A DNA stretch of 64,000 nucleotides from Thermoproteota archaeon (GCA_037917685.1 JAVCBU010000006.1:320001-384000), one strand, 5' to 3'. Counted from the stretch's first letter, positions 650 through 23,767 are shown. Notes: a model not told the origin generated them from the sequence alone. Translations and numbers: made by a program.

Positions 650-937
650 ATGGTTGAAGAATTCCTATGTATGAACGCGCTGAAATACTGCGCCGAAGCG
701 AGAAAGCTCCAGCAGGAGGGAAAATATAAGCTTGCTGGTGAACTATGCATTAGAATCTCACAGCTGTGTAGGAAGAGGGGAGAAAACGCCAACATGGAGG
801 AGTGCATTCGAGAATCCAAACTATGCAGGAAGGCAGGTGAATTATTTATATCATCCGAAAATATCTCTGAAGCCCAGAAAATATGTCAGAAATCAGTAAA
901 ACTCTGTCCAAGAAGCAAGATTGGAATGTCAGGATAA
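650..937 (+). CDS. small Cys-rich helical-repeat (TPR/SNAP-like) hypothetical protein
   Basis: 95-aa ORF in a gap between genes; repeated AGEL motifs; 8 Cys; start may be ATG at 671. Confidence 0.5.
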   Translation: MVEEFLCMNALKYCAEARKLQQEGKYKLAGELCIRISQLCRKRGENANMEECIRESKLCRKAGELFISSENISEAQKICQKSVKLCPRSKIGMSG

Positions 938-1810
938 AACCCTTACAGATTCCCAAAACCTTGAGGTAAACGTAGCAACCCCCTCTCCCGGAGGATATAT
1001 CACCAACAAGGCAAACGCTCTACCAATCGTGAAGTCTTTCCAAAAGTAAACCCTACACTCACCCCTTCTCTTTCTAAGCAACGCATCCCTCACATAATAT
1101 TTCAAACCTCTGGACACAACATGAAACCCTCTAATATTCTTCTCCTCAGTCCATTCCTCAATAAATTTCCTCCCAACCATCTTTTCAGCTTCCCTAACCT
1201 TACGTTCCACGTCTTTAATCTTAATTTTCTCTGGGAAATGCCATCGGTAAAGTATAAAAAACTTTCTCCCACCCTTAAGTAGAGCTTTAGACTCTCCAAC
1301 CCGCAATTCTAGCTTAGAGACAACAAATCCCTTCGGTGTCTTAAACTCTAGGTTTAAAAGAGTCCAATATTCGTATTCTCCCCTCCAGTGGCACCTAAAC
1401 TTTTGTAGAATGTTGTTTAACGTCTCCTCAGCATCTTTAGGGCTCTGACTCCTATAGTAAACTAGAAAGTTAAGCCCTGATACATCGCAGTGCCAAATGC
1501 CACCCATGCCTTGAGCATCCTCCTCCTGAATCCTAAACTTCCCACACTTATGCCCCCTAATAGATGTAAAACCAGTCTTATATACATTAACAGTTTTCAA
1601 CTTTTTGGCCATAGCTTCGATGGAACGGTCGACATCAACAGTCCTACCAGGCTCCCATTTAACAATGAACCTCTCTCCAAACTCAATATCGCTTAGGGCT
1701 ACAATACCGCCACCCCGGCTAAAACCAAAACTTGAAATCTCCCAGTCCCTGCCCACCTCAACCTTAAAAACCCCCATCCCAAAGGGCTTACTCAAAAACC
1801 CCATACCCAT
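929..1810 (-). CDS. hypothetical protein, apparently two related alpha/beta halves
   Basis: 293-aa ORF; no recognised catalytic motif. Confidence 0.7.
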   Translation of the reverse strand: MGMGFLSKPFGMGVFKVEVGRDWEISSFGFSRGGGIVALSDIEFGERFIVKWEPGRTVDVDRSIEAMAKKLKTVNVYKTGFTSIRGHKCGKFRIQEEDAQGMGGIWHCDVSGLNFLVYYRSQSPKDAEETLNNILQKFRCHWRGEYEYWTLLNLEFKTPKGFVVSKLELRVGESKALLKGGRKFFILYRWHFPEKIKIKDVERKVREAEKMVGRKFIEEWTEEKNIRGFHVVSRGLKYYVRDALLRKRRGECRVYFWKDFTIGRAFALLVIYPPGEGVATFTSRFWESVRVLS

Positions 1811-1861
1811 TCTTATCCCCTATGAAACTTTATAAGCTCATTATGAGTAGCTATTCACAGA

Positions 1862-2485
1862 ATGACAGTGAATATTGCCGAACTGGAGAAACAGATAGAC
1901 ATGGATCTAACCCTAGGTAAAATCACCGAGGAAGAGTGGAAAAGGAAGATGGGTATAATTAAAAGCATTAAAAAACTTGATGAAGATTTAATCTACGGCA
2001 GGATAACAGAAGCCGAATATAAAAACAAGCGTGAAGCGCTAATTTCTCAACTCCAGCCACCCACGGCTGCCCCTACATACCAGCCTAAGCCTGAGACACC
2101 CCCTCCACCCCCGCTCTATACTAATATACAGAAAATCGTGTCAGAGCTTGAAATAGTGAAATCCAAGAGGAGAAAACTCTCTGATCTCCTCTTAAATAAG
2201 GAAATAAGCGAAAAAACCTTCAACAAGATAGATAACGAGCTGGAATCTGAGGAGAAGAAACTGGAGGAAAAACTGAAAAGTCTAAAATCTGAGATTGAAG
2301 AAAGAATAGAAAAGCTCTCATCCGAGCTGGAAGAACTAAAATTGCAGCTCGAAGAGGCACTAGCAAGGTGGAGAATAGGAGATATCACTGAGGATGAGTA
2401 TAACAGGAAGAAGTCGGAGCTGGAAGCAAGAAAAAACACGGTCGAGAACGAGCTGGAAACCTTGAAAAAGGCAGCGATAGACTAG
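1862..2485 (+). CDS. CdvA-like coiled-coil protein with tandem N-terminal SHOCT-like motifs and Pro-rich linker
   Basis: GKITEEEW and GRITEAEY motifs, PPPPP linker, then LSDLLLNKEISEKTF...coiled coil...ARWRIGDITEDEY as in the CdvA helical domain. Confidence 0.7.
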   Translation: MTVNIAELEKQIDMDLTLGKITEEEWKRKMGIIKSIKKLDEDLIYGRITEAEYKNKREALISQLQPPTAAPTYQPKPETPPPPPLYTNIQKIVSELEIVKSKRRKLSDLLLNKEISEKTFNKIDNELESEEKKLEEKLKSLKSEIEERIEKLSSELEELKLQLEEALARWRIGDITEDEYNRKKSELEARKNTVENELETLKKAAID

Positions 2486-2569
2486 CTCCCCCAGCCCCTT
2501 TATGTGCAAAATCCAAAACTCGACAGTACAAGGTAAATTTAAAAGACAGACAAGGTACAACATATCCAG

Positions 2570-4327
2570 ATGCCCAGTTTAGCAAAGCCTAAACAAAATA
2601 TCTATACAATAGGATACAGGTTCTTCAAACCTCTTGGAGAGCTGATAATGAAGCTCTACAAGGACCTACCAACAGATCTCGGCAAAGCAGATATGAGAGT
2701 ATACCCCCTAGCTTATGCATCAGCCGTCGCAATGCTAACCATAACCATGGCGGTCCTAATGGTTAGCATAAACCTAGTCCTCTACGCGGCTTTCAAAATA
2801 GTCTACCCCCTTATGATAGTCCTATGTATAATAATCCCAGTAATAACCTTCGCATTAGGATTGCTAGCCCCCGTCGTCTGGAAGTACAATAGGATAAAAT
2901 CTCTCGAGAATGAGACACCCTTCGCAGCAGCCTACATCTCTGTCATGTCCACAGGCGGGATAACACCCTTTAGAAGCATGAAAAGACTGAGCCAAGCCAA
3001 ACTACTGCCAAACCTGGCCAGAGTATCCAAGTACATAGTCTTCGATGTTTCATTGTTTGGAATAGACCCACTCTCAGCCATGGACAGAGCAGCCGAGAAT
3101 GTGCCGGCAAAAAGCTATTCCGAGCTAATAAAAGGATACGTTTCAACGGTTAGAACAGGAGGAGACTTCGTCCACTACCTGCTTCGGAAGACCGAGCTAA
3201 TGTTCAACGAGCGAATAGGACAACTAAGAATAATAGGGGAAAAGCTGGGTATGATGATGGAAGGATACATAGCGGTAACAGTACTCTTAGGCCTAGGGAT
3301 CTATGCCATATACATAACCAATGTAGCAATGCCAGTCCCTATGCCAATGTTCGGACAGGCGAGCTTCTTCCTGTTTACTTACATACTAACACCAATGATC
3401 TCGATTTTATTCTTATACCTTGGAGACATGATGCAACCATCCTATCCTGAAACTAACTGGAAAGTTTACAAGATATGGCTGGCGGGCCTAATACCTGGAA
3501 TAGTGGTAATCCTGTTATCAGCCATATTTCCAACCTTCCCGGTAAGAACCGCTGTAGAAAAACTTGTAATAGACATCCTAGGCTTAGGGCCTGGCACGGT
3601 TCTCCCAACTATCGTAGGATTATTGCTCATAATCTCAAGCATCCCGGGAGCCTGGGTAAGCATAAGATACGATAAAAGAAAGAGAGAAACGGAGAGAAAC
3701 CTGGCATTTTTCCTACGGGACCTCGTGGAGATAAGAAAGGCGGGATTACCACCTGAGAAGTGCATAGCAAACCTCAAAAATAGAGACTACGGTATCCTAT
3801 CACCACTGATAAAAAGGCTTTCAGCACAAATAGAATGGGGCATACCAATCCACAAAATTCTCCGTGATTTCAACAATTCAGTAAACAGCTGGCTTGCCAA
3901 AATGATGATGTTCCTCCTAGTAGACGCGATAGACATCGGTGGCGGAACCCCCCGCACGATGGAAGCAATGGCAAGCTACACCGAAATGATGAACGAAGTA
4001 GAAAATCAGAAGAGAGAACAGTTGAGACCACTCCTAATAGTACCATACATAGGAGCCCTAGTACTTGTAGTCTCAACGGTGATACTCCTAGGATTCATGA
4101 GAGGGGTTCTAGCCCTAGCAAGAATGGGAATAGCCTACGAATCTTTCCTTCAAATGTTCACAACACCCCTAGTGATAAACGTATACCTAATGGGCCTAGT
4201 ATCAGGAAAAGTAGGCGAAGAAAAAGTGTCAGCAGGAATAAAACACGCACTCCTACTAACCCTAATCTCAGTAGTAGCCCTGTGGATAACACCCTCAATA
4301 AGCATCACATTCGCACCAGTAGGATAA
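2570..4327 (+). CDS. type II/IV secretion system F-family membrane platform (PilC/FlaJ/TadC-like)
   Basis: Two T2SSF repeats (LENETPFAAAYISVMSTGGITP; LAFFLRDLVEIRKAGLPPE...IDIGGG) with multiple TM helices. Confidence 0.92.
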   Translation: MPSLAKPKQNIYTIGYRFFKPLGELIMKLYKDLPTDLGKADMRVYPLAYASAVAMLTITMAVLMVSINLVLYAAFKIVYPLMIVLCIIIPVITFALGLLAPVVWKYNRIKSLENETPFAAAYISVMSTGGITPFRSMKRLSQAKLLPNLARVSKYIVFDVSLFGIDPLSAMDRAAENVPAKSYSELIKGYVSTVRTGGDFVHYLLRKTELMFNERIGQLRIIGEKLGMMMEGYIAVTVLLGLGIYAIYITNVAMPVPMPMFGQASFFLFTYILTPMISILFLYLGDMMQPSYPETNWKVYKIWLAGLIPGIVVILLSAIFPTFPVRTAVEKLVIDILGLGPGTVLPTIVGLLLIISSIPGAWVSIRYDKRKRETERNLAFFLRDLVEIRKAGLPPEKCIANLKNRDYGILSPLIKRLSAQIEWGIPIHKILRDFNNSVNSWLAKMMMFLLVDAIDIGGGTPRTMEAMASYTEMMNEVENQKREQLRPLLIVPYIGALVLVVSTVILLGFMRGVLALARMGIAYESFLQMFTTPLVINVYLMGLVSGKVGEEKVSAGIKHALLLTLISVVALWITPSISITFAPVG

Positions 4328-4384
4328 CCAGACACACCCAAGCCTCAAAACCGAGAGCTTAAAAATCACATCAAGCCATTGAGC

Positions 4385-4984
4385 TTATAGAACTCTAAGT
4401 TTACTCTTAAGCCTAAGAGACAAAACAATAACCACAAACCCAACAATAACCAGTCCCGGAAGAATAAAACTAGTGATCAGGCTAGGCGGAGACCATCCTC
4501 CGGTAAAAGACAGTAATACAAGAGTATTAACGCCTGTCGAAAACATAAAGGTACCAAGGAACAACAACCAATTCGAACGCCGAACCATCTTTCGCTTATA
4601 ATTGGGATCAACCCTAAACTGCAAATAAGCCTTCCTCACAACTTCCTCAGGAACTCTAAGCCCTTCAAAACTCTTCAAAGCTTTCCTTGCAAACTCAACA
4701 GCCCCCCTGGCCTCCTCCATACTAGGCAAATACAAACTATGCAGACAATAATTCCTAAGCCTCCTATAATGATGTAACTCATCCCAAAAAGGAATCCTAA
4801 CCCCATGATCCCTCCCAAAAAACATCATATCAATTAAACCAGCCCTGTGAAGCTCCGGAATCCCGAAAGCCTCCCTAAGACCAATCTCTAAAGCCTTAAC
4901 TGACAAAATAACCGCAGCATCAAAAAGACCTGCCTTTAAAGCCTTATCAGCACGGTCCAAAAGCTCCCAACACCCACCGGGCAT
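4385..4984 (-). CDS. HEPN-domain protein with two C-terminal transmembrane helices
   Basis: FDAAVILSVKALE helix and RRLRNYCLH (RxxxxH) motif, followed by two hydrophobic segments and a basic tail. Confidence 0.72.
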   Translation of the reverse strand: MPGGCWELLDRADKALKAGLFDAAVILSVKALEIGLREAFGIPELHRAGLIDMMFFGRDHGVRIPFWDELHHYRRLRNYCLHSLYLPSMEEARGAVEFARKALKSFEGLRVPEEVVRKAYLQFRVDPNYKRKMVRRSNWLLFLGTFMFSTGVNTLVLLSFTGGWSPPSLITSFILPGLVIVGFVVIVLSLRLKSKLRVL

Positions 4985-4991
4985 ACAAACC

Positions 4992-5786
4992 CTACCTCCT
5001 CACCCGTTTCAAAAAGCCAAAACTAAATAAAAGTCTCCTCTTCGGCCTCACCACAATAGCCGGCGGCTTCACACCCATAATCCTAGCAGCCACACTCCTC
5101 AAAGCCAAAGCCGCAGGAGAATCAGGTTTAACCTTAGCCAAAACCTCAAGCCTAGCAGACGAAACTTTCATGGCAGGATCATGAGGGATGGCGCCCAAAA
5201 AAGGCATTTCCAGAATCCTCTCGAAACTCCGAACAACCTCAGGTCTAAGCAAACCCTGGTCTTCAACATCGTTCAAAACAAAACCCAAAGCCCGAGCCCT
5301 AACATTATCCCCTGTACCCTTAACAAACAAGGCAGCATCCAAGCTCCAAACATCAGGCTCTACAACGACTAGATACTCCCGGAAAGCGGACATAGCCCTA
5401 ACCACATTCCCCCCCAAACCCTGACCAGCATCCACAATAACATAATCAACACGGTCAGCAATAGAACCAAGCATCCTAACAAGATCATCAAAAAGAACAC
5501 CACCAGACCCCCGCCGGAAAGGCCTAACAGGAATAATTCCAAGCCTATCATGAATTCTCGTGGCATGAACAGCCTTCCACAGTGGAATACCCTCAGAAAC
5601 AACCCTCACCAAGTCAACCTCAACATCAGCAACCCCAAAAAGCCTCGACAAACAGGCAAACTCCAAATCACCATCAACCAACAAAACAACATTCCCAGCC
5701 TCAGCCAACAAAAAACCTAGGTTAGCACTAACAACAGTCTTACCAGTACCACCCTTCCCAGAAACCACCACAAAGCCACGCTTCAA
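4992..5786 (-). CDS. minD: MinD/ParA-family ATPase
   Basis: Deviant Walker A SGKGGTGKT, LLVDGDL, LGFVLN, IPHDP; C-terminal amphipathic RRLLFSFGFLKR; TTG start at 5786 with GAGG upstream. Confidence 0.85.
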   Translation of the reverse strand: MKRGFVVVSGKGGTGKTVVSANLGFLLAEAGNVVLLVDGDLEFACLSRLFGVADVEVDLVRVVSEGIPLWKAVHATRIHDRLGIIPVRPFRRGSGGVLFDDLVRMLGSIADRVDYVIVDAGQGLGGNVVRAMSAFREYLVVVEPDVWSLDAALFVKGTGDNVRARALGFVLNDVEDQGLLRPEVVRSFERILEMPFLGAIPHDPAMKVSSARLEVLAKVKPDSPAALALRSVAARIMGVKPPAIVVRPKRRLLFSFGFLKRVRR

Positions 5787-5872
5787 CCCCAACCTCAAAC
5801 ATACTAACAGACCGAAACATATAAAAATAATCCCAACCCCCCAAATAAATAGCAAGCCAACAACTAACAACA

Positions 5873-5902
5873 AACCAAAAAAGAAAGGGAAATAAAGGGA
5901 AG
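5873..5902 (-). terminator. oligo-pyrimidine terminator of pilin gene
   Basis: Minus strand reads TTCCCTTTATTTCCCTTTCTTTTTTGGTTTG immediately after the pilin stop. Confidence 0.55.
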
Positions 5903-5903
5903 T

Positions 5904-6341
5904 TTATGGGATAGCCACAGCCTTAGGATAATCCTTACCGCCTGCAGTATGCAGGGTAACTTCATATGTAACCCCGGATGACCAAGAGCCACCAGTTACA
6001 CTGGGCGGAATGTCACCATTGTAGATGTGTATAGTGACGCTAGCACCGCTAACCAGCGTTATAGGTAGCGTACCAGACAGATTCCCTCCACTTCTCACCG
6101 GGATTCCATTAATGAATACGTCAGTGATGGTGGCATCGGCGGACCCAGTATTCTTAACTCTTAGTGTAACTCTCTGGTTAGTTGAATCGTACCACGCAGC
6201 AGAGATTTCAAGCTTTTCAAATCTCGTAAAGATGCCGGCTATGCCAACGACCCAGTATGCGACCGCTATTGCTATTGCTATGGCGACTGCTACGATTATA
6301 ATGGTTGCTATTACCGGGGATATTCCCGCGTTTCTTCTCAT
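5904..6341 (-). CDS. archaeal type IV pilin (class III signal peptide)
   Basis: MRRNAG/ISPVIATIIIVAVAIAIAIAVAYW cleavage site and hydrophobic helix; beta-rich domain with VKNTG and VFING. Confidence 0.93.
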   Translation of the reverse strand: MRRNAGISPVIATIIIVAVAIAIAIAVAYWVVGIAGIFTRFEKLEISAAWYDSTNQRVTLRVKNTGSADATITDVFINGIPVRSGGNLSGTLPITLVSGASVTIHIYNGDIPPSVTGGSWSSGVTYEVTLHTAGGKDYPKAVAIP

Positions 6342-6371
6342 AACCTGATCATTTATTCTTGACTTTTCATA

Positions 6372-6387
6372 GAATTTAAATCTTTGT
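6372..6387 (-). promoter_or_regulatory. BRE/TATA promoter of pilin
   Basis: Minus strand CACAAAGATTTAAATTC about 35 nt upstream of the pilin ATG. Confidence 0.5.
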
Positions 6388-6614
6388 GATATTTTTGTTT
6401 GTTGTTGTTTTTTCTGGTAAATTTTTAAATATATGGCTATTTTCTAGGTATGTTTTTGATTTTTACATGATTTTATGTGTTTTTCAAGTTCATTCTTCCT
6501 TTTCGTGTTTTGAGTGGATTTTTAATGTTGTTAGATATGGTGGTTGTTTTCTTTTTAATATTATGGTTTTGACCTTGGCCTTTAGGTATGGTTTGGAGGT
6601 TAGATCCCCTCTCC

Positions 6615-6665
6615 TACATTGAGAGTTACATCTTCTAATATTTATTTGATGTAACTCTCAATGTA
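6615..6665. repeat. perfect 18-bp inverted repeat with 15-nt AT-rich spacer
   Basis: TACATTGAGAGTTACATC (6615-6632), TTCTAATATTTATTT, GATGTAACTCTCAATGTA (6648-6665). Confidence 0.95.
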
Positions 6666-6698
6666 AATACCCCCGTTCATTGGAGTGTGATGGTGCTT

Positions 6699-8297
6699 TT
6701 ACATTTTAATTGTTGTTTTAATCTTCCTTAAGTAGTATTCCCTTATCATTCTCCCTATTTCTCTGTAGTCTGTTACGTTTCTTTTGATCATTTCTTCTAT
6801 TAGCGCTTCTCTTTCTCTAATTTCGTTTATTATGTCTGGGACTGTTCTCGCTGTTTCTATGGCTATTTCTTTCAGTATCCTGCTTTTTGTTAGGTCTCCT
6901 ATGAACAGGTCCCTGCCTGCGTTCCACCAGAACACGGTGTTCTTCTGGAGGGTTGCGCCGTCATAGTCAATAATTTCATCTATTCTTTTTATCCTTCTAG
7001 CCATCCTTCCGTTAGGTAAGTTCACTCTTCCAAGTAGGATCGCTATTTTGATAAGGGGTATGTAAGCTGGTGCTATGTCCAGAGGTTTCTGTGTGAACCT
7101 CTTGATTGCTGCTTCGACACTGTCTGCGTGGAATGTTGTAAGTCCCCCGTGTCCTGTTGCTATTGCTTGTATTAGGGCGTATGCTTCTCTTCCTCTAATT
7201 TCTCCGACAATTATGTAGTCAGGTCGGTGTCTTAGGCTTGTCACTACTAGGTCGAATAGGTCTATTCCTCCTCCGGTTTCCTTGCTTACACCTAGCCCGT
7301 ATGCAGGTCTTGATATGAATTCTATCCAGTTTTCATGTGGTAGCCTTAGTTCCGCGGTTTCCTCTACTGTTATTATCTTTGCTTCAGGCCTTATCATACA
7401 TGATAGGGCATTTAGAAGTGTTGTTTTCCCAGCTGCTGTAGCCCCGATTATTAGTACAGCCTTTTTGTACTCCATGGCTATCCAGAGGTAGGCGGCCATT
7501 TCGCTTGTTAGAACTCCGAAGTTTATCAGGTCAACAATAGTGTAAGGTTTCTCTCTGAATTTTCTAATTGTGAATGTTCCACCTTTAGGGGTTATTTCAC
7601 GCCTGTAGCTTGCTGCAAGCCTGTGCTTTCCCTCGAGCATGACGTCTACTATGGGGAAGGCTGTTGAGATGTGTTTTCCAGCTCGATGGACGAGTTTTAC
7701 TATAAACTCGTCCAGGTATTCCTCGCTGTTGAAAATTATGTTTGTCTTCATGCTTTCATACTTTCTGTGCCAGATGTAAACTGGAACGCCGACTCCGTCG
7801 CACGATATGTCCTCGATGTTAGGATCCCTCATAAGTCCGTCGATCGGGCCGTAGCCTAGAAGGTTTCTTTTGATGTAGCACAGTATTTTAGGCCAGCTTA
7901 CCGTTTCTTTGAGTTTAATCTTATACTTTTTAGCTATCCTTGTAGCCTCTAGGGCGAGGTATTTCTCTCTGTCTTTTATCTCGTCAGGTGCCATTATTTC
8001 GCTTGACAGCATGTCGACTACAAGGTCGTATATCTCCTTCTCCTGCTTGTTCATTTTTTCCTCGATTACGAAATATCTTCTTTCCCCGTCAACAGGGTTC
8101 ATGGCTATGACAGCCTTGGAGAAAACCTTATATGTAGGGTATTCTTTCACTGTAGGAAACGGGTTAAGCTCTGGAGGGGCTGCTTCGAGCTCGGATGCTT
8201 CGTAAAGTTTATATGCTTCAATTATATCCCAGTCAGGGGGTAGTGGCTCTAGAGTGACTTCTTCAGGTTTTATTTCCCGTTCTAGTAATGACCACAT
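6699..8297 (-). CDS. type IV pilus/archaellum-family assembly ATPase (PilB/FlaI/VirB11)
   Basis: DPNIEDISCDG, FTIRKF, Walker A GATAAGKTT, EETAEL, RHRPDYIIVGEIRG, TGHGGLTTFHA. Confidence 0.95.
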   Translation of the reverse strand: MWSLLEREIKPEEVTLEPLPPDWDIIEAYKLYEASELEAAPPELNPFPTVKEYPTYKVFSKAVIAMNPVDGERRYFVIEEKMNKQEKEIYDLVVDMLSSEIMAPDEIKDREKYLALEATRIAKKYKIKLKETVSWPKILCYIKRNLLGYGPIDGLMRDPNIEDISCDGVGVPVYIWHRKYESMKTNIIFNSEEYLDEFIVKLVHRAGKHISTAFPIVDVMLEGKHRLAASYRREITPKGGTFTIRKFREKPYTIVDLINFGVLTSEMAAYLWIAMEYKKAVLIIGATAAGKTTLLNALSCMIRPEAKIITVEETAELRLPHENWIEFISRPAYGLGVSKETGGGIDLFDLVVTSLRHRPDYIIVGEIRGREAYALIQAIATGHGGLTTFHADSVEAAIKRFTQKPLDIAPAYIPLIKIAILLGRVNLPNGRMARRIKRIDEIIDYDGATLQKNTVFWWNAGRDLFIGDLTKSRILKEIAIETARTVPDIINEIREREALIEEMIKRNVTDYREIGRMIREYYLRKIKTTIKM

Positions 8298-8425
8298 ATC
8301 AACTATTATAGTATGGTGCTTACAATATTATAAATTAACATTGAAATCCTCTTATAAATTGTGAATTATCCTATGATTTCAAGTTAAAATCAAACATTTT
8401 ATATACAACTTAGGAGTTAGAACTA

Positions 8426-16857: not shown

Positions 16858-17634
16858 CTATACACCCAGATGGTCAGGCAGTTCAGCTATACTACTAACT
16901 ACGATATCAGGCTTATCCGTACTTTTCCTAATATCTTCAATGCCCGTTGCCCCTGTTAGAACCATAACCATCTCTGCACCGATCCTTCTAGCCAGGGCAA
17001 GATCTGTCTCGAACCTATCACCCACCACTATACACCTCCCCGTGGGAATCCCGATGGTCTCTTCTAGGATGAGGGTTGACGGCTTACCGATCAGTATAGG
17101 CCTCTTACCGGTGCAAGTCTCTATAGATGACACTATCGCACCAGCACCCGGCTCCAAACCCCCCTCCAACGGCAACGTTGCATCCCTATTCGTGGCGATA
17201 AAAACTGCGCCGTTAACCACAGCCTTAAAAGCTCTGCTAAGCTTTTCATAGTTGAAACCTCTGTCTAGACCAACGCAGACATAGTCAGCTGTCTTCCAGT
17301 CGCTTACAATGTCTAAACCTTGACCCTTAAGCTCAGCCAATAGCCCTTCTTCACCGATGACTAGCACTCTCCCGCCTTGTCTCTTTGCAATGTACCTCGC
17401 TGAAGCAAATCCAGATGTTATAACTTCATCGATGCTAACCTGTATCCCCATCCGCCAAAGCTTCTCTACATATTTGGCTCGGTGAAGGGTTGAATTGTTA
17501 GTGATAAAATATATGTTTCCTATCTTTCTGATCCTCGCTAGGGCATCTGAGGCTCCCTTTACTGGGGTGTTACCCCTGTACACCACCCCGTCAAGGTCTA
17601 TAAGAAAAGTAGGCATCCTAAGCCTTACCCTCAA
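16858..17634 (-). CDS. HAD-IIA family hydrolase (NagD-like)
   Basis: DLDGV, ITNNS, GKP, VGDRFETD, VLTG. Confidence 0.92.
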   Translation of the reverse strand: MRVRLRMPTFLIDLDGVVYRGNTPVKGASDALARIRKIGNIYFITNNSTLHRAKYVEKLWRMGIQVSIDEVITSGFASARYIAKRQGGRVLVIGEEGLLAELKGQGLDIVSDWKTADYVCVGLDRGFNYEKLSRAFKAVVNGAVFIATNRDATLPLEGGLEPGAGAIVSSIETCTGKRPILIGKPSTLILEETIGIPTGRCIVVGDRFETDLALARRIGAEMVMVLTGATGIEDIRKSTDKPDIVVSSIAELPDHLGV

Positions 17635-18604
17635 GAACTTCTGGGTTCACTATTGTCGGCGGTTTCCTACCCTCGAAGAATGCAATCAGATTCTCAGCGA
17701 CTATCTCAGCCATCCGTGACCTAGTTTCAATTGATGCACTGGCAATGTGGGGCGTAGCTACGAAATTGTCAAGCTCGAGCAGCGGGTTGGTTGTAGGTGT
17801 AGGCTCCTGCTCGAAAACATCACAGGCAGCAGCGAATATCCACTTCTCCTTCAAAGCCCTATACAACGCTTCCTGGTCGACAACCTTACCCCTAGCAGTA
17901 TTGATTAGTACAGCTGTCGGCTTCATAAGCTTAAGTTCCCTCTCACCAATGAGATGATACGTTCCCTCTGTTAATGGGACATGAAGACTTACAAAGTCAG
18001 CCTCCCTTAGAAGATCATCAAGCTCCCGGTACTCAATTCCAAGCTTCTCCTCGAGATCCTTCCTTCTTATAACATCGTAGTAAATAATCTTCATGTCGAA
18101 TCCCTTAGCGCGCTTTGCAACAGCGCTACCTATTCTACCAAGCCCCACGATCCCCAGAGTTCTGCCGTAGACATCTTGGCCAAGCATCATCAGGGGATGC
18201 CATCCAACCTTCCACTTACCAGCCCTAACATACTTATCAGCTTCAACAACCCTTCTAGCCGCTGAGAGTAGCAATGCCATCGTGAAGTCGGCAACTGTCT
18301 CAGTTAAAACGCCAGGAGTATTGGTGACTACTATACTCCTCTCCGTGGCAGCCTTAACATCAATATTATCGTATCCCACGGCGTACTGTGCAATAATCTT
18401 AAGGTTCGGCGCTGCATCCATCACCTCGGCGTCTATAGGATCCGTAAGAAGCGAAACAAGAGCATCCTTATCCCTAACCTTCTCAATGATCACCTTCTTC
18501 GGCGGGGGAGCCTCCTCAGGCCATATCTCAACATCAAACCTCTCCCTGATCTTATTAAGCCCCCTTTCGGGTATCATCCTCGTCATATACACTTTAGGCT
18601 TCAA
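17618..18604 (-). CDS. gyaR: glyoxylate reductase (D-2-hydroxyacid dehydrogenase)
   Basis: QYAVGYDNID, TNTPGVLT, GLGRIG, INTARG, PHIASA. Confidence 0.9.
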   Translation of the reverse strand: MKPKVYMTRMIPERGLNKIRERFDVEIWPEEAPPPKKVIIEKVRDKDALVSLLTDPIDAEVMDAAPNLKIIAQYAVGYDNIDVKAATERSIVVTNTPGVLTETVADFTMALLLSAARRVVEADKYVRAGKWKVGWHPLMMLGQDVYGRTLGIVGLGRIGSAVAKRAKGFDMKIIYYDVIRRKDLEEKLGIEYRELDDLLREADFVSLHVPLTEGTYHLIGERELKLMKPTAVLINTARGKVVDQEALYRALKEKWIFAAACDVFEQEPTPTTNPLLELDNFVATPHIASASIETRSRMAEIVAENLIAFFEGRKPPTIVNPEVLEGKA

Positions 18605-18650
18605 ACATTATCACCTCCACCAAACTCTTACCGATACATACCTATTAACC

Positions 18651-19187
18651 TTACCGCAGAGGCTTAAACAATGAGAGGAGATAAACAGCTTCCCTCCTCC
18701 TCTCACTTGTAACCCTGACAGCAACGAAACCCTCCCCTGGCTGGCCGTAAACCATTACCCAACCATCAGGGGCCAATATGACAGCCGGAAAGCCAAGCAG
18801 ATCCTCCTCACCATCAACAAGCACGAAAACTCTTACACCATCAATCGAAGACTCAATAGCAGACTTAACAGCATGCCAAGCCTTAACCGTTATGCATCCA
18901 GGCGGATTCTCAGTACTAAGAACCCTATAGCCCTCCGGGGGCTTCAAAGGGTACGGCATCCTCTCCACAAACCCGTCCCCAATAATAACTGCGGGCCTCA
19001 GCCCTGCAAGAACGAAGCTGGAGCCAACAAAATCCCCAACAGCCACGACATTCACTCCTTTGAAAATATGAGGATCTAAACTCCTATATAACATCCCCCT
19101 AGGCTTCCTAACAATCCTCGCAACCTCCTCTGTTACCCTAAGATCCACCAAAAGGTTCAAATTCTCATCCAGAAAACCCAACCACAC
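18651..19187 (-). CDS. GTP-dependent dephospho-CoA kinase (DUF359)
   Basis: VAVGD, NPPGCIT, VDGEEDL, YGQPGEG. Confidence 0.88.
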   Translation of the reverse strand: MWLGFLDENLNLLVDLRVTEEVARIVRKPRGMLYRSLDPHIFKGVNVVAVGDFVGSSFVLAGLRPAVIIGDGFVERMPYPLKPPEGYRVLSTENPPGCITVKAWHAVKSAIESSIDGVRVFVLVDGEEDLLGFPAVILAPDGWVMVYGQPGEGFVAVRVTSERRREAVYLLSLFKPLR

Positions 19188-19457
19188 CCCCCGGCCTATT
19201 ACCCCCTACGAAATTTAGAAATATTACCAGACCCTTTCCGAATTGAAAGTAGGCGTGGTTGAAATACGCGATAATGGAAGGATAATAAAAGTACATAGAC
19301 GGCTTAGAGGTGGCAGGGAAACCTTAATCAGCTATACCTCTCGATCCTTTCAAAACTGAAAACTTTTATCAGCAGAGGAATATTTGGCTTGGCTATTTGC
19401 AATGAGCTTATAAGCTGACTTATTAACTACATCAGGGTTACTATTTATAGGGTTTGT

Positions 19458-19898
19458 TTGAGCCTCGTTGAGGTAGCGGTCTGCAAGCTCGTTGAAAGTC
19501 TAGGTGACAGAGTTGTTGCAGTAGCCCTATTTGGCAGTAGGGCTAGAGGTGAATCCTCTGAGCATAGTGATTATGACTTCCTAGTCATTGTTAGGGATAT
19601 GGATGAATGTGACAGGAGATTTAAGATTTATGATCCGCTGTACAAAGTTTTAAAGCGGGATATCACAGTGATTGATATTTCTGAAGACAAGATTTTCAGG
19701 GAGAATCTTGAGATAGACTCCTTCCTTTTAAATATAGCTTATGATGGTGTTATCCTGTACGATCCATCCGGTAAGCTTAAAGAACTCTTTAATAGGATCA
19801 AGAAGGCTATTAAAGGTAAACTAGTCAGGTACAAGACAAAAGATGGGAAATATGGGTGGAAGCCCTTGGATGGGTTTTTAAAGCCAATAGAGGTGTAA
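19458..19898 (+). CDS. minimal nucleotidyltransferase (MNT antitoxin-like)
   Basis: LFGSRARG...SDYDFLVI, GVILYD. Confidence 0.9.
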   Translation: MSLVEVAVCKLVESLGDRVVAVALFGSRARGESSEHSDYDFLVIVRDMDECDRRFKIYDPLYKVLKRDITVIDISEDKIFRENLEIDSFLLNIAYDGVILYDPSGKLKELFNRIKKAIKGKLVRYKTKDGKYGWKPLDGFLKPIEV

Positions 19899-19902
19899 AA
19901 GT

Positions 19903-20338
19903 TTGAAGATAAATCCTGAGAGTGAGGTGAAGTATAGGATTAAGCTTGCAGAGGGGTATGCGGAGAGAGCCAGGAAATTTCTCAGGCAGGGCTTCTACAA
20001 AGAATGTGTCGAAGCAGCCCAGTTGTCAATAGAGAACTCGGCGAAGGCCATCGTAGCCCTTAGAAGAATGCCGAGCTGGAGCCATGATCCGTCTCAAGAG
20101 CTCTACGAGATAATACCTGAGCTACCAGAAAAATGTAGGAAGCTGGCAGAGAGACTTGCCCATTTATCTCACGCAGTTGCTCCTGAGCATGGCACCTCAA
20201 CTTATGGAAGACCCAGTGAGTCTAGCCCCCTGGGAGATTTACGATGAGGAAGATGCCAGAAACATTCTAAAAAAGGTTGAAGAAGCCCTTAAGCTTATGA
20301 AACAAATACTTCAAACATTGCATAAGCATGCCCCCTGA
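19903..20338 (+). pseudogene. HEPN-domain protein, frameshifted
   Basis: AQLSIENSAKA, WSHD, HGTSTYG in one frame; natural C-terminus LAPWEIYDEEDARNILKKVEEAL in another; shift near 20218-20223. Confidence 0.8.
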
Positions 20339-20641
20339 AAATTAGACCTTTTACGCGCGCGATCCTTGCAACTGTCTCCTGAACCTTGATTATCACACCT
20401 CATCATCCACCTCCTCCTCAAGTATCTTAAGAGATTTAACAATCATCTGTATCCCGCTATTAGCTGGCCAGCTACTATGGCGGTTATATCCGCAAGGGCG
20501 ACCCCGACGTATAGCCCTCTCTCGTATGGTGTTAAAGTACTATTGAATGTAGCCGTGCTCATCAAGTAGTCAAAGTTTGTCACCCAGTAGAGGTCATATA
20601 CTCCCTGGAAAATAAATCCTCAACAAAATCCAGGATACTAG

Positions 20642-20730
20642 TGGGGCCGCCGGGATTTGAACCCGGGATCACCAGCGCCCCAGGCTGGCATCCTTTTGTG
20701 CACATGCTTACCAAGCTGGACCACGGCCCC
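20642..20730 (-). tRNA. tRNA-Pro(GGG) with 15-nt D-loop intron (20694-20708)
   Basis: Acceptor stem GGGGCCG/CGGCCCC, anticodon arm CCAGC-CTGGGGC-GCTGG, T arm CCGGG-TTCAAAT-CCCGG; removing AGCATGTGCACAAAA restores D arm GTCC-AGCTTGGTA-GGAT; CCA not encoded. Confidence 0.93.
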
Positions 20731-20833
20731 AAAGAGCCTTCTGACAAGCTCACTAATATAACAGCCTATTGGTTTTTAATGTTTATTTTTGAATGTATTC
20801 CAGGTGTAAGCGATACTAGGGATATCATTTCGG

Positions 20834-21751
20834 CTAAAGGGGTATCTGAAATTCTTGAAGGTCTTTTGCTAGTATTACTTTGTTGAAGTATTGTTTCGCT
20901 TCTTGTAGTATCTCTTCTAGGTCTTGATTATCATATCTTGCACTGAAGTGCGTTAGGGCTAGAGCTTTTACCTGTGCCTCTCTAGCTATCTGACATGCTT
21001 CCTCCACGGTGCTGTGCCATGTTTCTTTGGCTCTTTCTTTCATGTCCGACCTGAACGTTGCATCATGTATTAGTAAGTCGGCTTTCCATGCAGCTTTAAC
21101 TGTCTCAGACGTTGGTCTTGTGTCGCTTGAGTATACTACTTTCCTCCCCGGTCTTGGAGGCCCTAATACGTCTTTTGGGTGGACTATTCTCCCGTTTGGT
21201 AGTTCTACGGGGATTCCCTTCTGTAAGAGCCCCCTTAGCATTCTTGGTACGCCTAGCTCGTCTGACTTCTTTACATCATACTTTCCGGGTAGCGGTTTCT
21301 CTTCTAGGACTATACCATAGGTTGGAATGTCCCCGTGCTCAACCTTGAACGTTTTTATCCTGTAGTCCTGGTAGGTATAGATTGTAGGTCTGTCAAATTC
21401 TTCTATTTTTATAGGGAACGCTTCCCTGAACCTTGCCACTCTGCATGCCGTTTCTACGTACTCTTTTATCCCTGTCGGCCCATATATCTCTAGAGGGCTT
21501 GTTCTCCTCAGTATCGACATTGTTTGCAGTAGGGCTGGCAAGCCTAAGAAGTGGTCGCCATGGAGGTGGGTTATGAATATTCTTTTCAGCCGGCTTATCC
21601 CCAGTTTGGACCTTATGATTTGCCTTTGGGTTCCATCCCCGCAGTCTATTAAGATGTATTCTCCTCCTCTTTTTATGGCTATGCTTGTTAGGCCTCTATC
21701 CTTGGTTGGGACGGCGCTGGAAGTGCCGAGGAATACTACTTTTAAGAGCAA
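20834..21751 (-). CDS. rnz: ribonuclease Z
   Basis: FLGTSSAVP, DCGDGTQ, ITHLHGDH, SDTRP, HDATF, HST, THFSARY. Confidence 0.95.
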   Translation of the reverse strand: MLLKVVFLGTSSAVPTKDRGLTSIAIKRGGEYILIDCGDGTQRQIIRSKLGISRLKRIFITHLHGDHFLGLPALLQTMSILRRTSPLEIYGPTGIKEYVETACRVARFREAFPIKIEEFDRPTIYTYQDYRIKTFKVEHGDIPTYGIVLEEKPLPGKYDVKKSDELGVPRMLRGLLQKGIPVELPNGRIVHPKDVLGPPRPGRKVVYSSDTRPTSETVKAAWKADLLIHDATFRSDMKERAKETWHSTVEEACQIAREAQVKALALTHFSARYDNQDLEEILQEAKQYFNKVILAKDLQEFQIPL

Positions 21752-21754
21752 GTT

Positions 21755-22777
21755 CTACCTCCTCGCGACGGTAAATTTTCTAGTTAGCCCTCCGTGGACA
21801 TACTGGTAGTGTTTTTCTAAAACTTTGAAGCCCGAGTCTTCAAGGTACTCCTCTATTTTTGACTCTTTAGGAGTTGCGATGCAAATGTATCCGCCTGGCT
21901 TGAGGTAGGTAGCTGCTTTTCGGGCGAATATTTTCAGCAGTTCCTCCCTACTTTGGCCGTGGGGCATAGTTCCTCTTCCGTACGGTGGATCAGTGGCTAT
22001 TGCATCGATGTTTTCATTATATTCCAAGTAAAGGGCGTTTCCATGGTGTAGTTCGACGTTTTCTATCCCATAGTATAGCATTACCTGTTCAGCTTCTCTT
22101 ATTCTTCTCATTGATATGTCTACTCCTATTGCGTGGCATCCTATTAGAGAAGCCTCGACTAGAATACCGCCAGATCCACAGAATGGGTCGAGGAGGGTTT
22201 CTCCAGGTTTGGCTCTTGCTAGATTAACCATTGCCCGGCACACTGTGGGTTTCATCGCCCCTGGGTGGAAGAACGCCTGTAGACTTGCCTCTCTTGCGAC
22301 AAGCACCGACCTGTCAACATCTTTGATTGTTTTCCCTACGATGCAGTATTTATCTGTGAGTAGGACAGTTATTTCAACCTGCGGGTTCTCCATATCTCCC
22401 TTAAGATGTGGATTCCAGGATTTTACCATCCTTCCAAGCTCTCTTTCAACCTTCAGTCTTTCAACTTCAGCCTTGAAGCTTCCTGTCTTGTAGGCTCTCA
22501 CCCTGAAGGTTTCAGCCTCCACCTCGAATGGTTCTATCCTTCTCAGGTCTTCCAAGCTTTTGAAGTTTTCCAGAGTTCGTATGTGTTGGCAAATTTTCTG
22601 TGTGTACGCTGCCCTTCTTGATATTGCTTCTATGGAGCTTTCGCCGGCTTCAAATATGAGGCATTTAAAACATGTCTTAATTATTCGGTATTTTACCCTT
22701 TCCGCTTCAAGTATGCCCCTAATCTCGGCTGCGGGTATGGTTGGGTTTTCTCCTGAGAGGATTGCAAATAGCTTCAA
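21755..22777 (-). CDS. tRNA (guanine-10-N2)-methyltransferase (THUMP + MTase)
   Basis: FFHPGAM, LDPFCGSGG, ATDPPYGR, VHGGLTR. Confidence 0.9.
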   Translation of the reverse strand: MKLFAILSGENPTIPAAEIRGILEAERVKYRIIKTCFKCLIFEAGESSIEAISRRAAYTQKICQHIRTLENFKSLEDLRRIEPFEVEAETFRVRAYKTGSFKAEVERLKVERELGRMVKSWNPHLKGDMENPQVEITVLLTDKYCIVGKTIKDVDRSVLVAREASLQAFFHPGAMKPTVCRAMVNLARAKPGETLLDPFCGSGGILVEASLIGCHAIGVDISMRRIREAEQVMLYYGIENVELHHGNALYLEYNENIDAIATDPPYGRGTMPHGQSREELLKIFARKAATYLKPGGYICIATPKESKIEEYLEDSGFKVLEKHYQYVHGGLTRKFTVARR

Positions 22778-23766
22778 CGAGTATCACCAATCAGCATGGA
22801 GACTTCTTCTAAGAGCTTGCTGATACCTTGGCCTGTGGCCGCTGATATTATGCGGATGTTCTTCACTCTCTCATTTAACTTTCTTAGCCCATACTTAAAT
22901 GTTTCAAGGTCGGATTTATTTGCTGTTACGATAAACTTTTCTTTGTCCACTATCTGCCTCAAACTATCCAGTATTGCAAGCTGATTCTCAAGCGGGTACC
23001 CACACGTCTCCGTTGGATCTACAAGAAACACGACAACCTTGGCTAAATGTCTTATGGCGGCGATAGCCCTTCTTTCAACATTATTATGCTCTTCTAGTGG
23101 CTTGTCAAGAATCCCAGGTGTGTCTATGACTTGAACCACCTGCCCTCTGAGTGTTATGTGTCCAACAATAATATTCTTAGTTGTGAAAGGGTATTCAGCT
23201 ATTTTAGGCTTAGCCTTTGTAATTCTTTTCAGAAGCGTGCTTTTACCTGTGTTTGGTGCGCCGGCAAGGACGAGTGACGGCATATCGGTGTCTATGGTTG
23301 CGAGTTTGTCAAGCTTAACTGCGACATCCTTTATGAATTCGAGCTCGGGTGAAATCTGCTTTATGACCGAGGAGAATCTCCCAGTTGCGCTCTTTCTAAT
23401 CCTAATAAGTTCCCTCTCCGAATCTGCAACCCTTAGAAGCCTTCTATGCTGCCTTAATATCCTCTTAACCGTGCGATATGCCCAGTCAGCAGCCCCTAGT
23501 GAATGTTTAAGCTTGTCTACATCGATGAATGTAGAAATGAGTTCCCTGTAGAATGGGTGTAGGCTATCTATGCTTGGAAATCCTCTCACGACATTGTAGA
23601 GAAATCTCTGGGCTGCACCCTCAAACTGTTCTAGCCGTACCCGTTCCACGTATCTTCGTCTATCTATCCCTTTGAGTGTTGTAGGGACTTGTTTCCTCCT
23701 AAATGCTTTGCGGAAGGCGTAGTCTATTATCTCGTCTGAAGTGTAAACCATTGGCAGTTTTAGCAT
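22774..23766 (-). CDS. NOG1-family GTP-binding protein
   Basis: LHPFYREL, GAPNTGKS, YPFTT, DTPG, NKSD. Confidence 0.93.
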   Translation of the reverse strand: MLKLPMVYTSDEIIDYAFRKAFRRKQVPTTLKGIDRRRYVERVRLEQFEGAAQRFLYNVVRGFPSIDSLHPFYRELISTFIDVDKLKHSLGAADWAYRTVKRILRQHRRLLRVADSERELIRIRKSATGRFSSVIKQISPELEFIKDVAVKLDKLATIDTDMPSLVLAGAPNTGKSTLLKRITKAKPKIAEYPFTTKNIIVGHITLRGQVVQVIDTPGILDKPLEEHNNVERRAIAAIRHLAKVVVFLVDPTETCGYPLENQLAILDSLRQIVDKEKFIVTANKSDLETFKYGLRKLNERVKNIRIISAATGQGISKLLEEVSMLIGDTR

Positions 23767-23767
23767 T

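Follow-up and report, generated by a model that had tools for sequence, protein, structure and literature searches.

Why does the base composition of a DNA strand invert at a type IV pilin gene, and what does the point of inversion mark? A preliminary description of the window, a 64,000-nt stretch of a Thermoproteota archaeon genome, had claimed a sharp skew inversion centred on this gene and given base counts for either side. Both counts proved exact: the plus strand contains A26 C23 G5 T6 at 5641-5700 and T32 G12 A10 C6 at 6481-6540. Expressed as keto skew, (G+T)-(A+C), and compared between 1.5-kb flanks, the jump amounts to 0.58, the largest in the 1.81 Mb genome. At 5001-6000 the keto skew is -0.404, the second most extreme value among 7,176 1-kb windows genome-wide (mean 0.003, sd 0.079), and at 5601-5800, within a MinD-like gene, it reaches -0.60. 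Between 4251 and 6000, GC skew ranges from -0.34 to -0.47 and AT skew from +0.28 to +0.46. The locus comprises the following parts, where k3 denotes the coding-strand skew at third codon positions (1,752 ORFs, mean -0.03, sd 0.16).

800-4327, no strand: distal left arm; plus strand moderately A/C-rich, third-position skew -0.42 to -0.10, up to -0.58 at 4001-4400.
2570-4327, plus strand: T2SSF platform gene in the distal left arm (PF00482, 2.2e-22; k3 -0.41).
4385-4984, minus strand: gene for a 199-aa product with a hydrophobic C-terminal part, core left arm (k3 +0.66, rank 4 of 1,752 ORFs).
4992-5873, minus strand: MinD/ParA-like ATPase gene, where left-arm skew is strongest (PF01656, 6.3e-15; k3 +0.71, rank 3 of 1,752).
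5904-6341, minus strand: archaeal type IV pilin gene, the switch zone of near-zero skew (k3 -0.04).
6250-6440, no strand: block near-identical in a sister lineage by alignment, with the pilin 5' end, a TATA-like TTTAAAT and a T-rich leader.
6342-6698, no strand: 357-bp non-coding spacer in which the right arm begins; plus strand T-rich (A73 C43 G64 T177).
6615-6665, no strand: perfect inverted repeat, 18-bp arms around a 15-nt spacer, just past the stop codon of the pilus ATPase gene; not present in the sister lineage.
6699-8297, minus strand: type IV pilus ATPase gene (T2SSE/PilB-like), the right arm (PF00437, 5.5e-32; k3 -0.36).

The pilin product gave a weak Pilin_N match (0.0013), below the Pfam cut-off. 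The 4385-4984 product, previously labelled HEPN, matched no Pfam family at E <= 0.01, and that label was dropped. Repeats at 5800-6900 consist of short T-rich words and one 18-bp palindrome.

The base composition swaps abruptly between the strands at the pilin gene, independently of gene direction. Left of this gene the third-position skew of the plus strand passes through -0.4, -0.58 and -0.7, spanning one plus-strand and two minus-strand genes, and it is unbroken where the gene strand changes at 4327/4385 (-0.58 at 4001-4400, -0.68 at 4401-4800). The sign changes within the pilin gene, where the skew is about 0. From 6.8 to 8.8 kb the plus-strand values are +0.48, +0.40, +0.32, +0.17 and +0.02; along the ATPase gene, whose plus strand is G/T-rich, the skew thus drops from +0.48 to +0.17. 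By 8.4 kb nothing of the right arm is left, and from there to 16 kb, on the way to the next site 13 kb away, the skew is flat and near zero. Non-coding DNA carries the bias as well (+0.35 at 6342-6698, -0.47 at 4328-4384). It had been claimed that the bias fades over a few kb and that gene orientation does not explain it; the former agrees with its loss over 2-5 kb and the latter with a third-position skew continuous across plus and minus genes. The further claim that protein composition follows the skew holds for the MinD-like protein (residues with G/T-rich codons, z = +2.8; with A/C-rich codons, z = -2.1) and is weak for the ATPase (z = -1.4).

At the switch the plus strand passes from A/C-rich to G/T-rich, left to right, which is the polarity of forks leaving the point, as the preliminary description had noted in proposing a replication initiation site. 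The fork-like polarity and a local minimum of cumulative skew, at window position 6099, bear this proposal out in part. A chromosomal origin is not borne out: the cumulative skew of the contig declines between 210 kb and 428 kb, a 220-kb slope running straight through the pilin locus, and has its minimum at ~130 kb, next to orc1/cdc6 and a pair of ORB-like repeats. A canonical Orc1/Cdc6-dependent origin at the pilin site, with forks replicating a whole replichore, would account for the leading-strand polarity and suit both the AT-rich 357-bp spacer (GC 0.32 at 6251-6750) and the presence of mcm 28 kb away within the window. Nevertheless, it is very unlikely. The pattern TTCCN4GAAA, which contains the TTCC..GAA core of ORB as given in PMC1904270, occurs five times in the 64-kb window but nowhere at 5.8-6.8 kb. 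No orc1/cdc6 initiator gene adjoins the pilin site: TIGR02928 scored above cut-off only at C6:126,594-127,676 and C1:427,677-428,792, the nearest orc1/cdc6 lies ~199 kb away, and a profile search found none in the window, as had been claimed. On the replichore scale the locus is a small dent in the 220-kb slope, and the right arm vanishes too soon for such forks. With no ORB motif, no orc1/cdc6 initiator gene nearby and a skew minimum that is only local on the contig scale, the pilin site is not the main chromosomal origin.

The pilin site is the strongest of at least ten jumps of the same type, and hence not unique. Genome-wide, all ten jumps above 0.3 are upward, while 17 upward and 7 downward jumps exceed 0.25. 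Synthesis that departs from a point should give strong jumps of just this, upward, polarity. The arms generally end after 2-8 kb, some reaching 5-12 kb and into housekeeping genes such as nrdD. Arms that end after 2-8 kb, followed by flat skew to the next site, are not expected of ordinary diverging forks, and a simple long-range origin does not explain these ends. Nine to ten of the 17 sites above 0.25 fall in gaps of at least 500 bp, a length attained by 81 of the 1,730 gaps of the genome. No 8-10-mer is common to all 17, and several adjoin surface-protein, restriction-modification, CRISPR or toxin genes.

One site of this class, the only one with readable content, looks like an origin. C6:133.2-133.35k, the third strongest jump in the genome, contains two G-rich + TTCCACTCGA(A/G)AA elements in inverted orientation, separated by 99 bp with an AT-rich spacer between them, together with five TAGAGAACAA repeats. 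It sits at the local skew minimum of the contig, 5.5 kb from orc1/cdc6; its arm is 6-12 kb long and is retained in the same-genus genome G001. The replichore-scale skew here is ~0.03-0.06, compared with ~0.55 in the local arm, so plain fork direction is not the whole cause.

An acquired block, GRINS-like selection for skewed sequence or an assembly artefact was also considered. The composition matches the GRINS signature described in PMC8256042 (correlated GC and TA skew, a third-position peak and an amino-acid shift). However, contigs L042/L043 of the sister lineage, from two other metagenome assemblies and at 80-87% DNA identity, show the same sawtooth, kept even though ~50% of four-fold sites have changed, and it recurs in G001. 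The gradient runs smoothly through five genes at an ordinary GC content of 0.43-0.48. A search of 2500-8400 against the whole genome matched only itself and its own 51-bp palindrome, the arms being single copy, and all seventeen sites have one polarity. The skew at the pilin site is not due to gene strand, an acquired block or an artefact, and this group of explanations taken together is scarcely credible.

Transitions are redistributed between the strands of the arms. In the G000/G001 arm, C>T was estimated at 1.48 on the G/T-rich strand and 0.29 on its partner (outside, 1.00 and 0.89), and A>G at 0.86 and 0.21 (outside, 0.44 and 0.47). Partner-strand transitions are thus lowered ~3-fold and those of the G/T-rich strand raised 1.5-1.9 fold, in estimates that come from one genome pair under a reversible model with C>T near saturation. 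Four-fold identity is 0.65 in the arm (n = 716) and 0.53 outside (n = 636), that is, divergence in the arm is not raised; transversions are ~2-fold higher there. The redistribution of transitions and the unraised divergence indicate a fixed polarity and not hypermutation. A reverse gyrase scoring 1166 bits and a growth temperature of ~85 C, estimated from proteome composition, mark the organism as a hyperthermophile, so that single-strand deamination should matter.

Transcription could in principle impose such a polarity. If the pilin promoter region drove strong divergent transcription, reading through leftward and running antisense rightward, the non-template strand would be left single-stranded in R-loops. 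Its polarity agrees with the switch, the core left arm coincides with the pair of genes that follow the pilin gene, the C6:188,427 site lies exactly between divergent tRNA genes, and tRNA genes show a small mean jump (~0.08; upstream -0.063 +/- 0.012). This version of the earlier reading is nonetheless disfavoured, and we consider it quite improbable. The -0.58 skew carries on into the convergent plus-strand gene, the genes that hold right arms are transcribed toward the site, and two sites are flanked by convergent genes. Among genes no more than 4 kb from one of the 17 sites, the 67 pointing toward it have a mean k3 of -0.18 and the 70 pointing away one of +0.10, equal and opposite shifts about the genome mean of -0.03; as the sites were picked by skew, there is some circularity in such sign tests. 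The highly expressed EF-1alpha, thermosome, Alba and RNA polymerase genes have k3 values of -0.05 to -0.29, their coding strands not being G/T-rich, and downstream of the rRNA operon the effect is weak (one 500-bp bin at -0.19). Judged from sequence, the skew neither follows transcription nor scales with expression, as R-loop promoter skew does. Moreover, a fixed polarity with partner-strand transitions reduced argues against R-loops, which leave unexplained a ~3-fold decrease on the template strand without raised divergence.

The preliminary description had also called the pilin gene frequently exchanged, a remark that fits a hypervariable C-terminal part between near-identical blocks. Relative to the sister lineage, the C-terminal part of the pilin is 44-66% and the N-terminal part 87-98% identical, whereas the flanking blocks at 5584-5785 and 6250-6410 are 96-98% identical. 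Identity reaches 0.98 at 6301-6400, with identical runs at 6304-6355 and 6357-6407; past 6440 the spacer is unalignable, measuring 406 bp there versus 241 bp in the window. Four-fold-site identity is 0.82 in the 5' half of the MinD-like gene (n = 72) versus 0.40-0.51 outside. The skew might then stem from exchange itself, the variable allele being often replaced by incoming fragments whose resected 3' tails, of the minus strand on the left and the plus strand on the right, would be deaminated before pairing with the flanks and so import transitions. The polarity agrees, as do the mosaic, the high identity in the MinD-like gene, the replaced spacer, a break in G001 synteny at another switch site, and the surface-protein and defence-type neighbours of several sites. 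We consider this explanation unlikely, since exchange adds damage to one strand and cannot reduce transitions on its partner. Homogenisation by gene flow should cut transversions, yet these are doubled in the G000/G001 arm; thousands of exchanges would be required for 85% G/T at third positions, and the 5-12 kb arms extend into housekeeping genes.

Our tentative preference is that the pilin site is a short-range, outward DNA-synthesis start zone. The pilin region (~5.9-6.4 kb) would be the fixed polarity-switch point of the main single-strand-dependent mutation process. Synthesis or unwinding, origin-like or recombination-dependent, would start there repeatedly and travel outward for a few kb. 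The outward-running strand would in every case serve as the displaced or lagging-template strand, with its partner invariably copied and proof-read; on each side C>T and A>G would enrich the strand running 5'->3' outward in T and G, the same changes being suppressed on the partner. We infer that outward synthesis causes the skew, and the interpretation given in the preliminary description is, overall, partly supported. Counting against such a start zone, mapped origins number, to our knowledge, up to four in any archaeon, a figure that at least ten start zones would exceed.

The main rival to a start zone is a roadblock, which we regard as possible, if rather doubtful. Most transitions would stem from single-stranded tails formed by 5'->3' resection from random breaks, and the pilin region, like an Orc1-bound origin and other long intergenic regions, would block the tracts. 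Beside the block, DNA would be exposed only by tracts from the far side, and the exposed strand would be fixed. We are aware of no earlier case in which base composition was shaped by proteins blocking resection in archaea. Resection geometry, as set out in PMC7615360, yields the upward polarity at a block and its reverse at a break hot spot. A block predicts one-tract arms (2-3 kb) with flat zero between sites, as at 8.4-16 kb, and partner-strand suppression without added divergence; it makes a shared motif unnecessary, suits the siting in long gaps and agrees with the small replichore skew beside large local arms at the ORB-like site. G000 has NucS/EndoMS, which makes double-strand cuts at mismatches, and G004 and G006 are without it, a comparison of one genome with two; the first 400 kb of G004, the sole NucS/EndoMS-free genome scanned, show no sawtooth. 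On the other hand, the loci with the heaviest transcription, the rRNA operon and tRNA genes, are weak sites, the arm at C6:133k would require very long tracts, and rates on the G/T-rich strand look raised, not unchanged, in an estimate near saturation. Across the genome the switch points resemble fixed turning points of a mutation process acting on one strand, and they could be places at which DNA copying or repair begins or ends.

In bacterial and archaeal chirochores and in mammalian 'N-domains', skew switches upward at replication origins. The sites described here are alike in that the strand directed 5'->3' outward is G/T-rich, sharp jumps go upward only, and one of the sites coincides with an ORB-like pair beside orc1/cdc6. 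They differ in an amplitude 10-20 times the replichore-scale skew of the genome, in arms that stop after 2-8 kb, in their number (at least ten in 1.8 Mb) and, at the pilin site, in lacking an ORB motif or initiator gene. In vertebrate mitochondria, strand asymmetry results from strand-displacement replication. As there, C>T and A>G build up on one strand, and third-position skews are similar in size and graded with distance from the start point, a gradient seen here in composition. Unlike in mitochondria, the pattern is two-sided, mirrored, local and on a cellular chromosome, and partner-strand rates are lowered, not unchanged.

For archaea, PMC12999951 argues that there is little strand-specific mutational skew. 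GRINS, as defined in PMC8256042, are repeats of >500 bp that are >80% identical to another copy. The likeness extends to G+T-rich and A+C-rich zones that flip within 1 kb, to an effect strongest at third codon positions (0.6-0.7 here, with correlated mean absolute GC/TA skews >0.15), to proteins shifted to Gly/Val/Cys/Trp or Pro/Thr/His/Gln, and to a tie with recombination and high sequence identity. However, the arms here have no such second copy, and GRINS as described there have no fixed polarity around a point. PMC7615360 describes strand-asymmetric mutation at human meiotic double-strand-break hot spots, where the forward strand is single left of the break. The main resection footprint there (C>N and A>N, forward strand left of the break) has the opposite polarity to the forward strand seen here, which changes from A/C-rich to G/T-rich going left to right, and mutation is concentrated at those hot spots, in contrast to the unraised four-fold divergence here. 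Both, however, show mirrored kb-scale arms, caused there by single-stranded DNA, and the same source describes a long-range break-induced-replication component whose polarity is the one observed at the pilin gene.

The genome under study (G000; 1.81 Mb in 22 contigs, 95% complete) is archaeal, encodes a reverse gyrase (1166 bits) and has a proteome whose composition predicts growth near 85 °C. The window corresponds to C6:320,001-384,000. The part of its type IV pilus locus that concerns us is arranged as follows.

2570-4327, + strand: T2SSF platform gene of the type IV pilus locus
4385-4984, - strand: gene for a 199-aa protein without a Pfam family
4992-5873, - strand: MinD/ParA-like ATPase gene
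5904-6341, - strand: pilin gene, with a weak Pilin_N match
6342-6698, non-coding: spacer of 357 bp
6699-8297, - strand: T2SSE ATPase gene

The second of these had been called HEPN in the preliminary description, a label that is not confirmed, no Pfam family having been matched.

Left of the pilin gene the + strand is A/C-rich and right of it G/T-rich, giving the skew the shape of a sawtooth. Two 60-nt base counts reported earlier (5641-5700 and 6481-6540) were reproduced exactly. The keto skew, (G+T)-(A+C), of positions 5001-6000 is -0.404, the second most extreme value among 7,176 one-kb genome windows and 5 sd from the mean, and the jump at the pilin locus (0.58, comparing 1.5-kb flanks at every position) is the largest genome-wide. 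Among 1,752 ORFs called in G000 by a simple longest-ORF rule, keto skew at third codon positions of the coding strand (k3) has a mean of -0.03 (sd 0.16). Ranks three and four belong to the MinD-like gene (+0.71) and the 199-aa gene (+0.66), both on the - strand to the left of the pilin gene, while the T2SSF gene (+) and the ATPase gene at 6699-8297 (-) have values of -0.41 and -0.36. Along the + strand, third-position skew changes smoothly: it is mostly -0.23 to -0.40 in the T2SSF gene, -0.58 at 4001-4400, then -0.68, -0.71, -0.70 and -0.61 up to 6000, +0.13 in the pilin gene and +0.47, +0.48, +0.40, +0.32, +0.17 and +0.02 to the right of it. The gradient is unbroken where the gene strand changes (4327/4385), and the non-coding DNA at 6342-6698 is also skewed (+0.35). 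Thus, as had been proposed, gene orientation does not explain the skew. The arms, meaning the skewed kb-scale flanks of the switch point, recode proteins, the MinD-like protein having been moved toward Val, Gly and Phe. At the 5' end of its gene (window 4992-5090), the longest ORF starts at a TTG and adds about 30 hydrophobic residues before the Walker A motif; this N-terminus may be a genuine membrane anchor, or it may merely reflect the G/T-rich sequence, with its runs of Leu, Val, Gly and Phe codons. A search with the MinD-like protein for related loci on the genome contigs found no relative.

The same locus occurs in a sister lineage, on two metagenome contigs (L042 and L043) that share 99.6% identity. 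Compared with the window, DNA identity is 80-87% and the ATPase protein is 97% identical. Both contigs show the same sawtooth, although roughly one four-fold site in two has changed; in L042, where the spacer is longer, skew in 250-bp bins runs -0.46, -0.55, about 0 and +0.13, rising to about +0.3 over the spacer and the ATPase gene. The GC content of the locus is ordinary (0.43-0.48), and a genome-wide search found no second copy of the arms in G000. A foreign block or an assembly artefact is ruled out by these three observations. Relative to the sister lineage, the pilin C-terminal domain is hypervariable (44-66% DNA identity), whereas blocks at 5584-5785, inside the MinD-like gene, and at 6250-6410, covering the pilin N-terminal helix and promoter, are 96-98% identical. 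Such a mosaic in these alignments suggests that alleles are exchanged through recombination within the conserved flanks.

Comparable switch points were found throughout the genome. Upward jumps outnumber downward jumps in G000 by 10 to 0 above 0.3, 17 to 7 above 0.25 and 31 to 16 above 0.2, reaching parity at 0.15 (72 and 70). When the 17 sites above 0.25 were aligned on the jump, a gradual build-up, an abrupt flip and a gradual decay were observed, with arms of 2-8 kb. Flanking genes are tandem, divergent or convergent, and for neighbouring genes on opposite strands the skew correlation is +0.33 when strand-based and -0.34 when coding-based (n = 648). Nine or ten of the 17 sites lie in gaps of at least 500 bp, of which there are 81 among 1,730 genome-wide, one counted gap containing orc1 and histone genes missed by the ORF caller. 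At 15 of 19 sites the dominant arm has the sign of the 100-kb background, an agreement that is mostly gone after subtraction of this background (about 0.04). No 8-10-mer was enriched across the 17 sites once the number of words tested was allowed for. The palindrome AGTTACA..TGTAACT has only two copies in G000, at window 6624 and at the ORB-like site described below; it was dropped as evidence because it was noticed post hoc, shorter cores occur elsewhere and the sister lineage lacks the copy found in the window. Likewise rejected was GAGTGGAAG, which lies near the second strongest site (C6:414,541) without ORB-like context. In Rfam and tRNA scans of the 16 other sites, four tRNA genes at C6:188.4k were the only known RNAs, and the sole match in the window is partial and tRNA-like (20,639-20,730, - strand; not called by ARAGORN).

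Several switch points, and one contig end, have further features. The window holds a second, weaker sawtooth at about 19.2-20.8 kb (region 17,600-23,800), with third-position strand skew around 19.2 kb of -0.36 and -0.53 on the left and +0.18, +0.08, +0.37 and +0.28 on the right. Two genes, one for a DNA methyltransferase and one with a NucS/EndoMS domain (k3 +0.46), lie immediately right of the switch point C1:169,617 (C1:169,709-171,585); in the two complete relatives, G004 and G006, no NucS was found. Exactly on another switch point, C11:3,990-4,070 carries two tandem copies of a 41-bp unit with CCCCTCAGTGGGG. At a contig end, C19:67,311-67,811 consists of about 13 tandem 36-nt repeats with an extremely G/T-rich - strand; read as an ORF it gives repeated FPGFVDGLSCLL and is probably not a gene.

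The preliminary description had read the pilin locus as a replication initiation site, or else as a place of synthesis primed by transcription, R-loops or recombination. Both G000 orc1/cdc6 genes above cut-off lie outside the window, as it had stated. The cumulative skew of contig C6 has a local minimum at about 130 kb; beyond 210 kb it declines steadily as far as the contig end, passing through the pilin locus, which is therefore only a local dent. An ORB-like motif is absent from the pilin site. The third strongest jump, at C6:133.1k, is 5.5 kb from orc1, and an archaeal histone gene occupies the gap immediately upstream of that gene. The interval C6:132,750-133,360 contains two G-rich + TTCCACTCGA(A/G)AA elements in inverted orientation, which flank an AT-rich spacer and are separated by 99 bp. 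It also has five TAGAGAACAA repeats; three of these are exact, and G000 as a whole has nine exact copies. TTCC..GAA is described as the conserved core of mini-ORB/ORB elements (PMC1904270, in excerpt). The interval is likely to be oriC, in which case a sawtooth is able to sit on an origin. Replichore-scale skew there is about 0.03-0.06, compared with about 0.55 for the local arm.

The polarity of the sawtooth separates the possible mechanisms. On the left side of a break, resection turns the forward strand into single-stranded DNA (PMC7615360, in excerpt), so that a break at the centre would make this strand G/T-rich on the left. The opposite is observed, and a break hot spot at the pilin locus is excluded. 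The observed polarity is given by DNA synthesis that departs from the point (origin-like or break-induced), by divergent R-loops, by the 3' tails of incoming fragments or by a block to resection tracts. Tentatively, we favour the first of these: the pilin region would act as a short-range start zone from which DNA synthesis moves outward. A close second, possible but less probable, is that the site blocks resection tracts arriving from random breaks, which accounts for arms being short, for skew being flat from one site to the next and for a small replichore skew occurring together with large local arms. However, rRNA and tRNA loci, expected to be strong protein blocks, are only weak sites. 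The 41 tRNA genes show a small mean jump (-0.063 +/- 0.012 upstream, +0.014 downstream) and the 23S rRNA gene flank is weakly skewed; one site lies exactly between divergent tRNA genes. The weakness of these loci and the origin-like character of the one readable site are the grounds for preferring the start zone.

As regards transcription, the coding strands of the EF-1alpha, EF-2, thermosome, Alba and RNA polymerase genes are not G/T-rich (k3 -0.05 to -0.29). At distances of up to 4 kb from the 17 sites, mean k3 is -0.18 for the 67 genes pointing toward the site (54 negative, 12 positive) and +0.10 for the 70 pointing away (46 positive, 24 negative). These shifts are equal and opposite around the genome mean; their sign is partly circular, the sites having been chosen by skew, but their symmetry is not.

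Substitutions were compared at four-fold degenerate sites between genome pairs, with rates (times divergence time) from a reversible model. Between G000 and the same-genus genome G001, identity is 0.65 in the arm (n = 716) and 0.53 outside (n = 636), and sites differing by A/G make up 6.0% and 14.0%, respectively (z about 5, our own two-proportion estimate). Between the window and L042/L043 identity is 0.52 in the ATPase arm (n = 200), 0.82 in the MinD part (n = 72) and 0.40-0.51 outside. These comparisons use single genome pairs, C>T is close to saturation, and the genes within the arms are not those outside them. The rates below are for G000 and G001.

Four-fold substitution rates by strand
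C>T: G/T-rich arm strand 1.48; arm partner strand 0.29; outside, two strands 1.00 and 0.89
A>G: G/T-rich arm strand 0.86; arm partner strand 0.21; outside, two strands 0.44 and 0.47

Summed over both strands, arm and outside are about equal (C>T 1.77 and 1.89; A>G 1.07 and 0.91); transversions are not lowered in the arm, G>T rising from 0.10 outside to 0.27. Since identity is not lower in the arms and the sums are about equal, mutation is not increased in the arms. Their partner strand is spared about 3-fold, which fits a process whose polarity is random elsewhere and fixed here. R-loops would add damage to one strand only and do not predict this sparing. Nor do deaminated recombination tails, which likewise only add one-strand damage. 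Cassette exchange is improbable as the cause and a contributor at most; the mosaic at the pilin gene is itself real. A wider reading, which we regard as unlikely, is that this TACK hyperthermophile has no set of 1-4 fixed origins, fork direction being near-random and fixed only around at least 10 initiation zones without sequence specificity, located in long, AT-rich intergenic DNA, the pilin locus being the most efficient. If true, this would be a eukaryote-like origin landscape, legible from base composition alone.

Other genomes served as controls. The sawtooth is absent from the homologous pilus loci of six genomes of other families, and the first 400 kb of the complete G004 (same order, other family) have no upward and two downward jumps at 0.2. 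In 281 kb sampled from G001 there are three upward jumps and one downward at 0.2 and none at 0.25; the sole clear arm stops at a contig end. Contig C13 of G001 is syntenic with C6:133.6-148.4k and keeps the arm of that site, synteny stopping at the switch point, which carries a methyltransferase gene copy 70% identical to the one on C1. The site at C6:404-420k has no match in G001, a genome only 66% complete. On C13 of G001, anaerobic ribonucleotide reductase NrdD (G001:C13:10,859-13,756; one 983-aa frame) is 93% identical to that of G000; an insertion of about 320 residues, between query residues 187 and 185, may be an intein. Lost deamination repair was rejected as a cause, since G000, like G004 and G006, has both EndoV and UDG.

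In this uncultured hyperthermophile, gene-independent skew, with about 85% G/T at third positions, is limited to mirrored arms on the kb scale around points that are fixed and conserved. If these points are start zones, replication or recombination-dependent initiation could be mapped from sequence alone in unculturable organisms; if they are barriers to resection, mutation at high temperature would arise mainly from break repair. Under either reading, the arms distort codon-usage and horizontal-transfer tests. In published full text we found no account of local sawtooth skews of this kind for the chromosome of any archaeon; supplementary files lay outside the search and may bear on this. Archaeal strand skews are described as weak and due to gene orientation, with little strand-specific mutational skew (PMC12999951, in excerpt), to which G000 is a clear exception at local scale. 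Among known systems, the pilin-locus skew matches every compositional trait of GRINS as described in PMC8256042, but the G000 arms lack the repeats that define them. Mitochondrial strand-displacement gradients and the skew switches at origins are also alike; however, the pattern in G000 is local, mirrored and multi-site.
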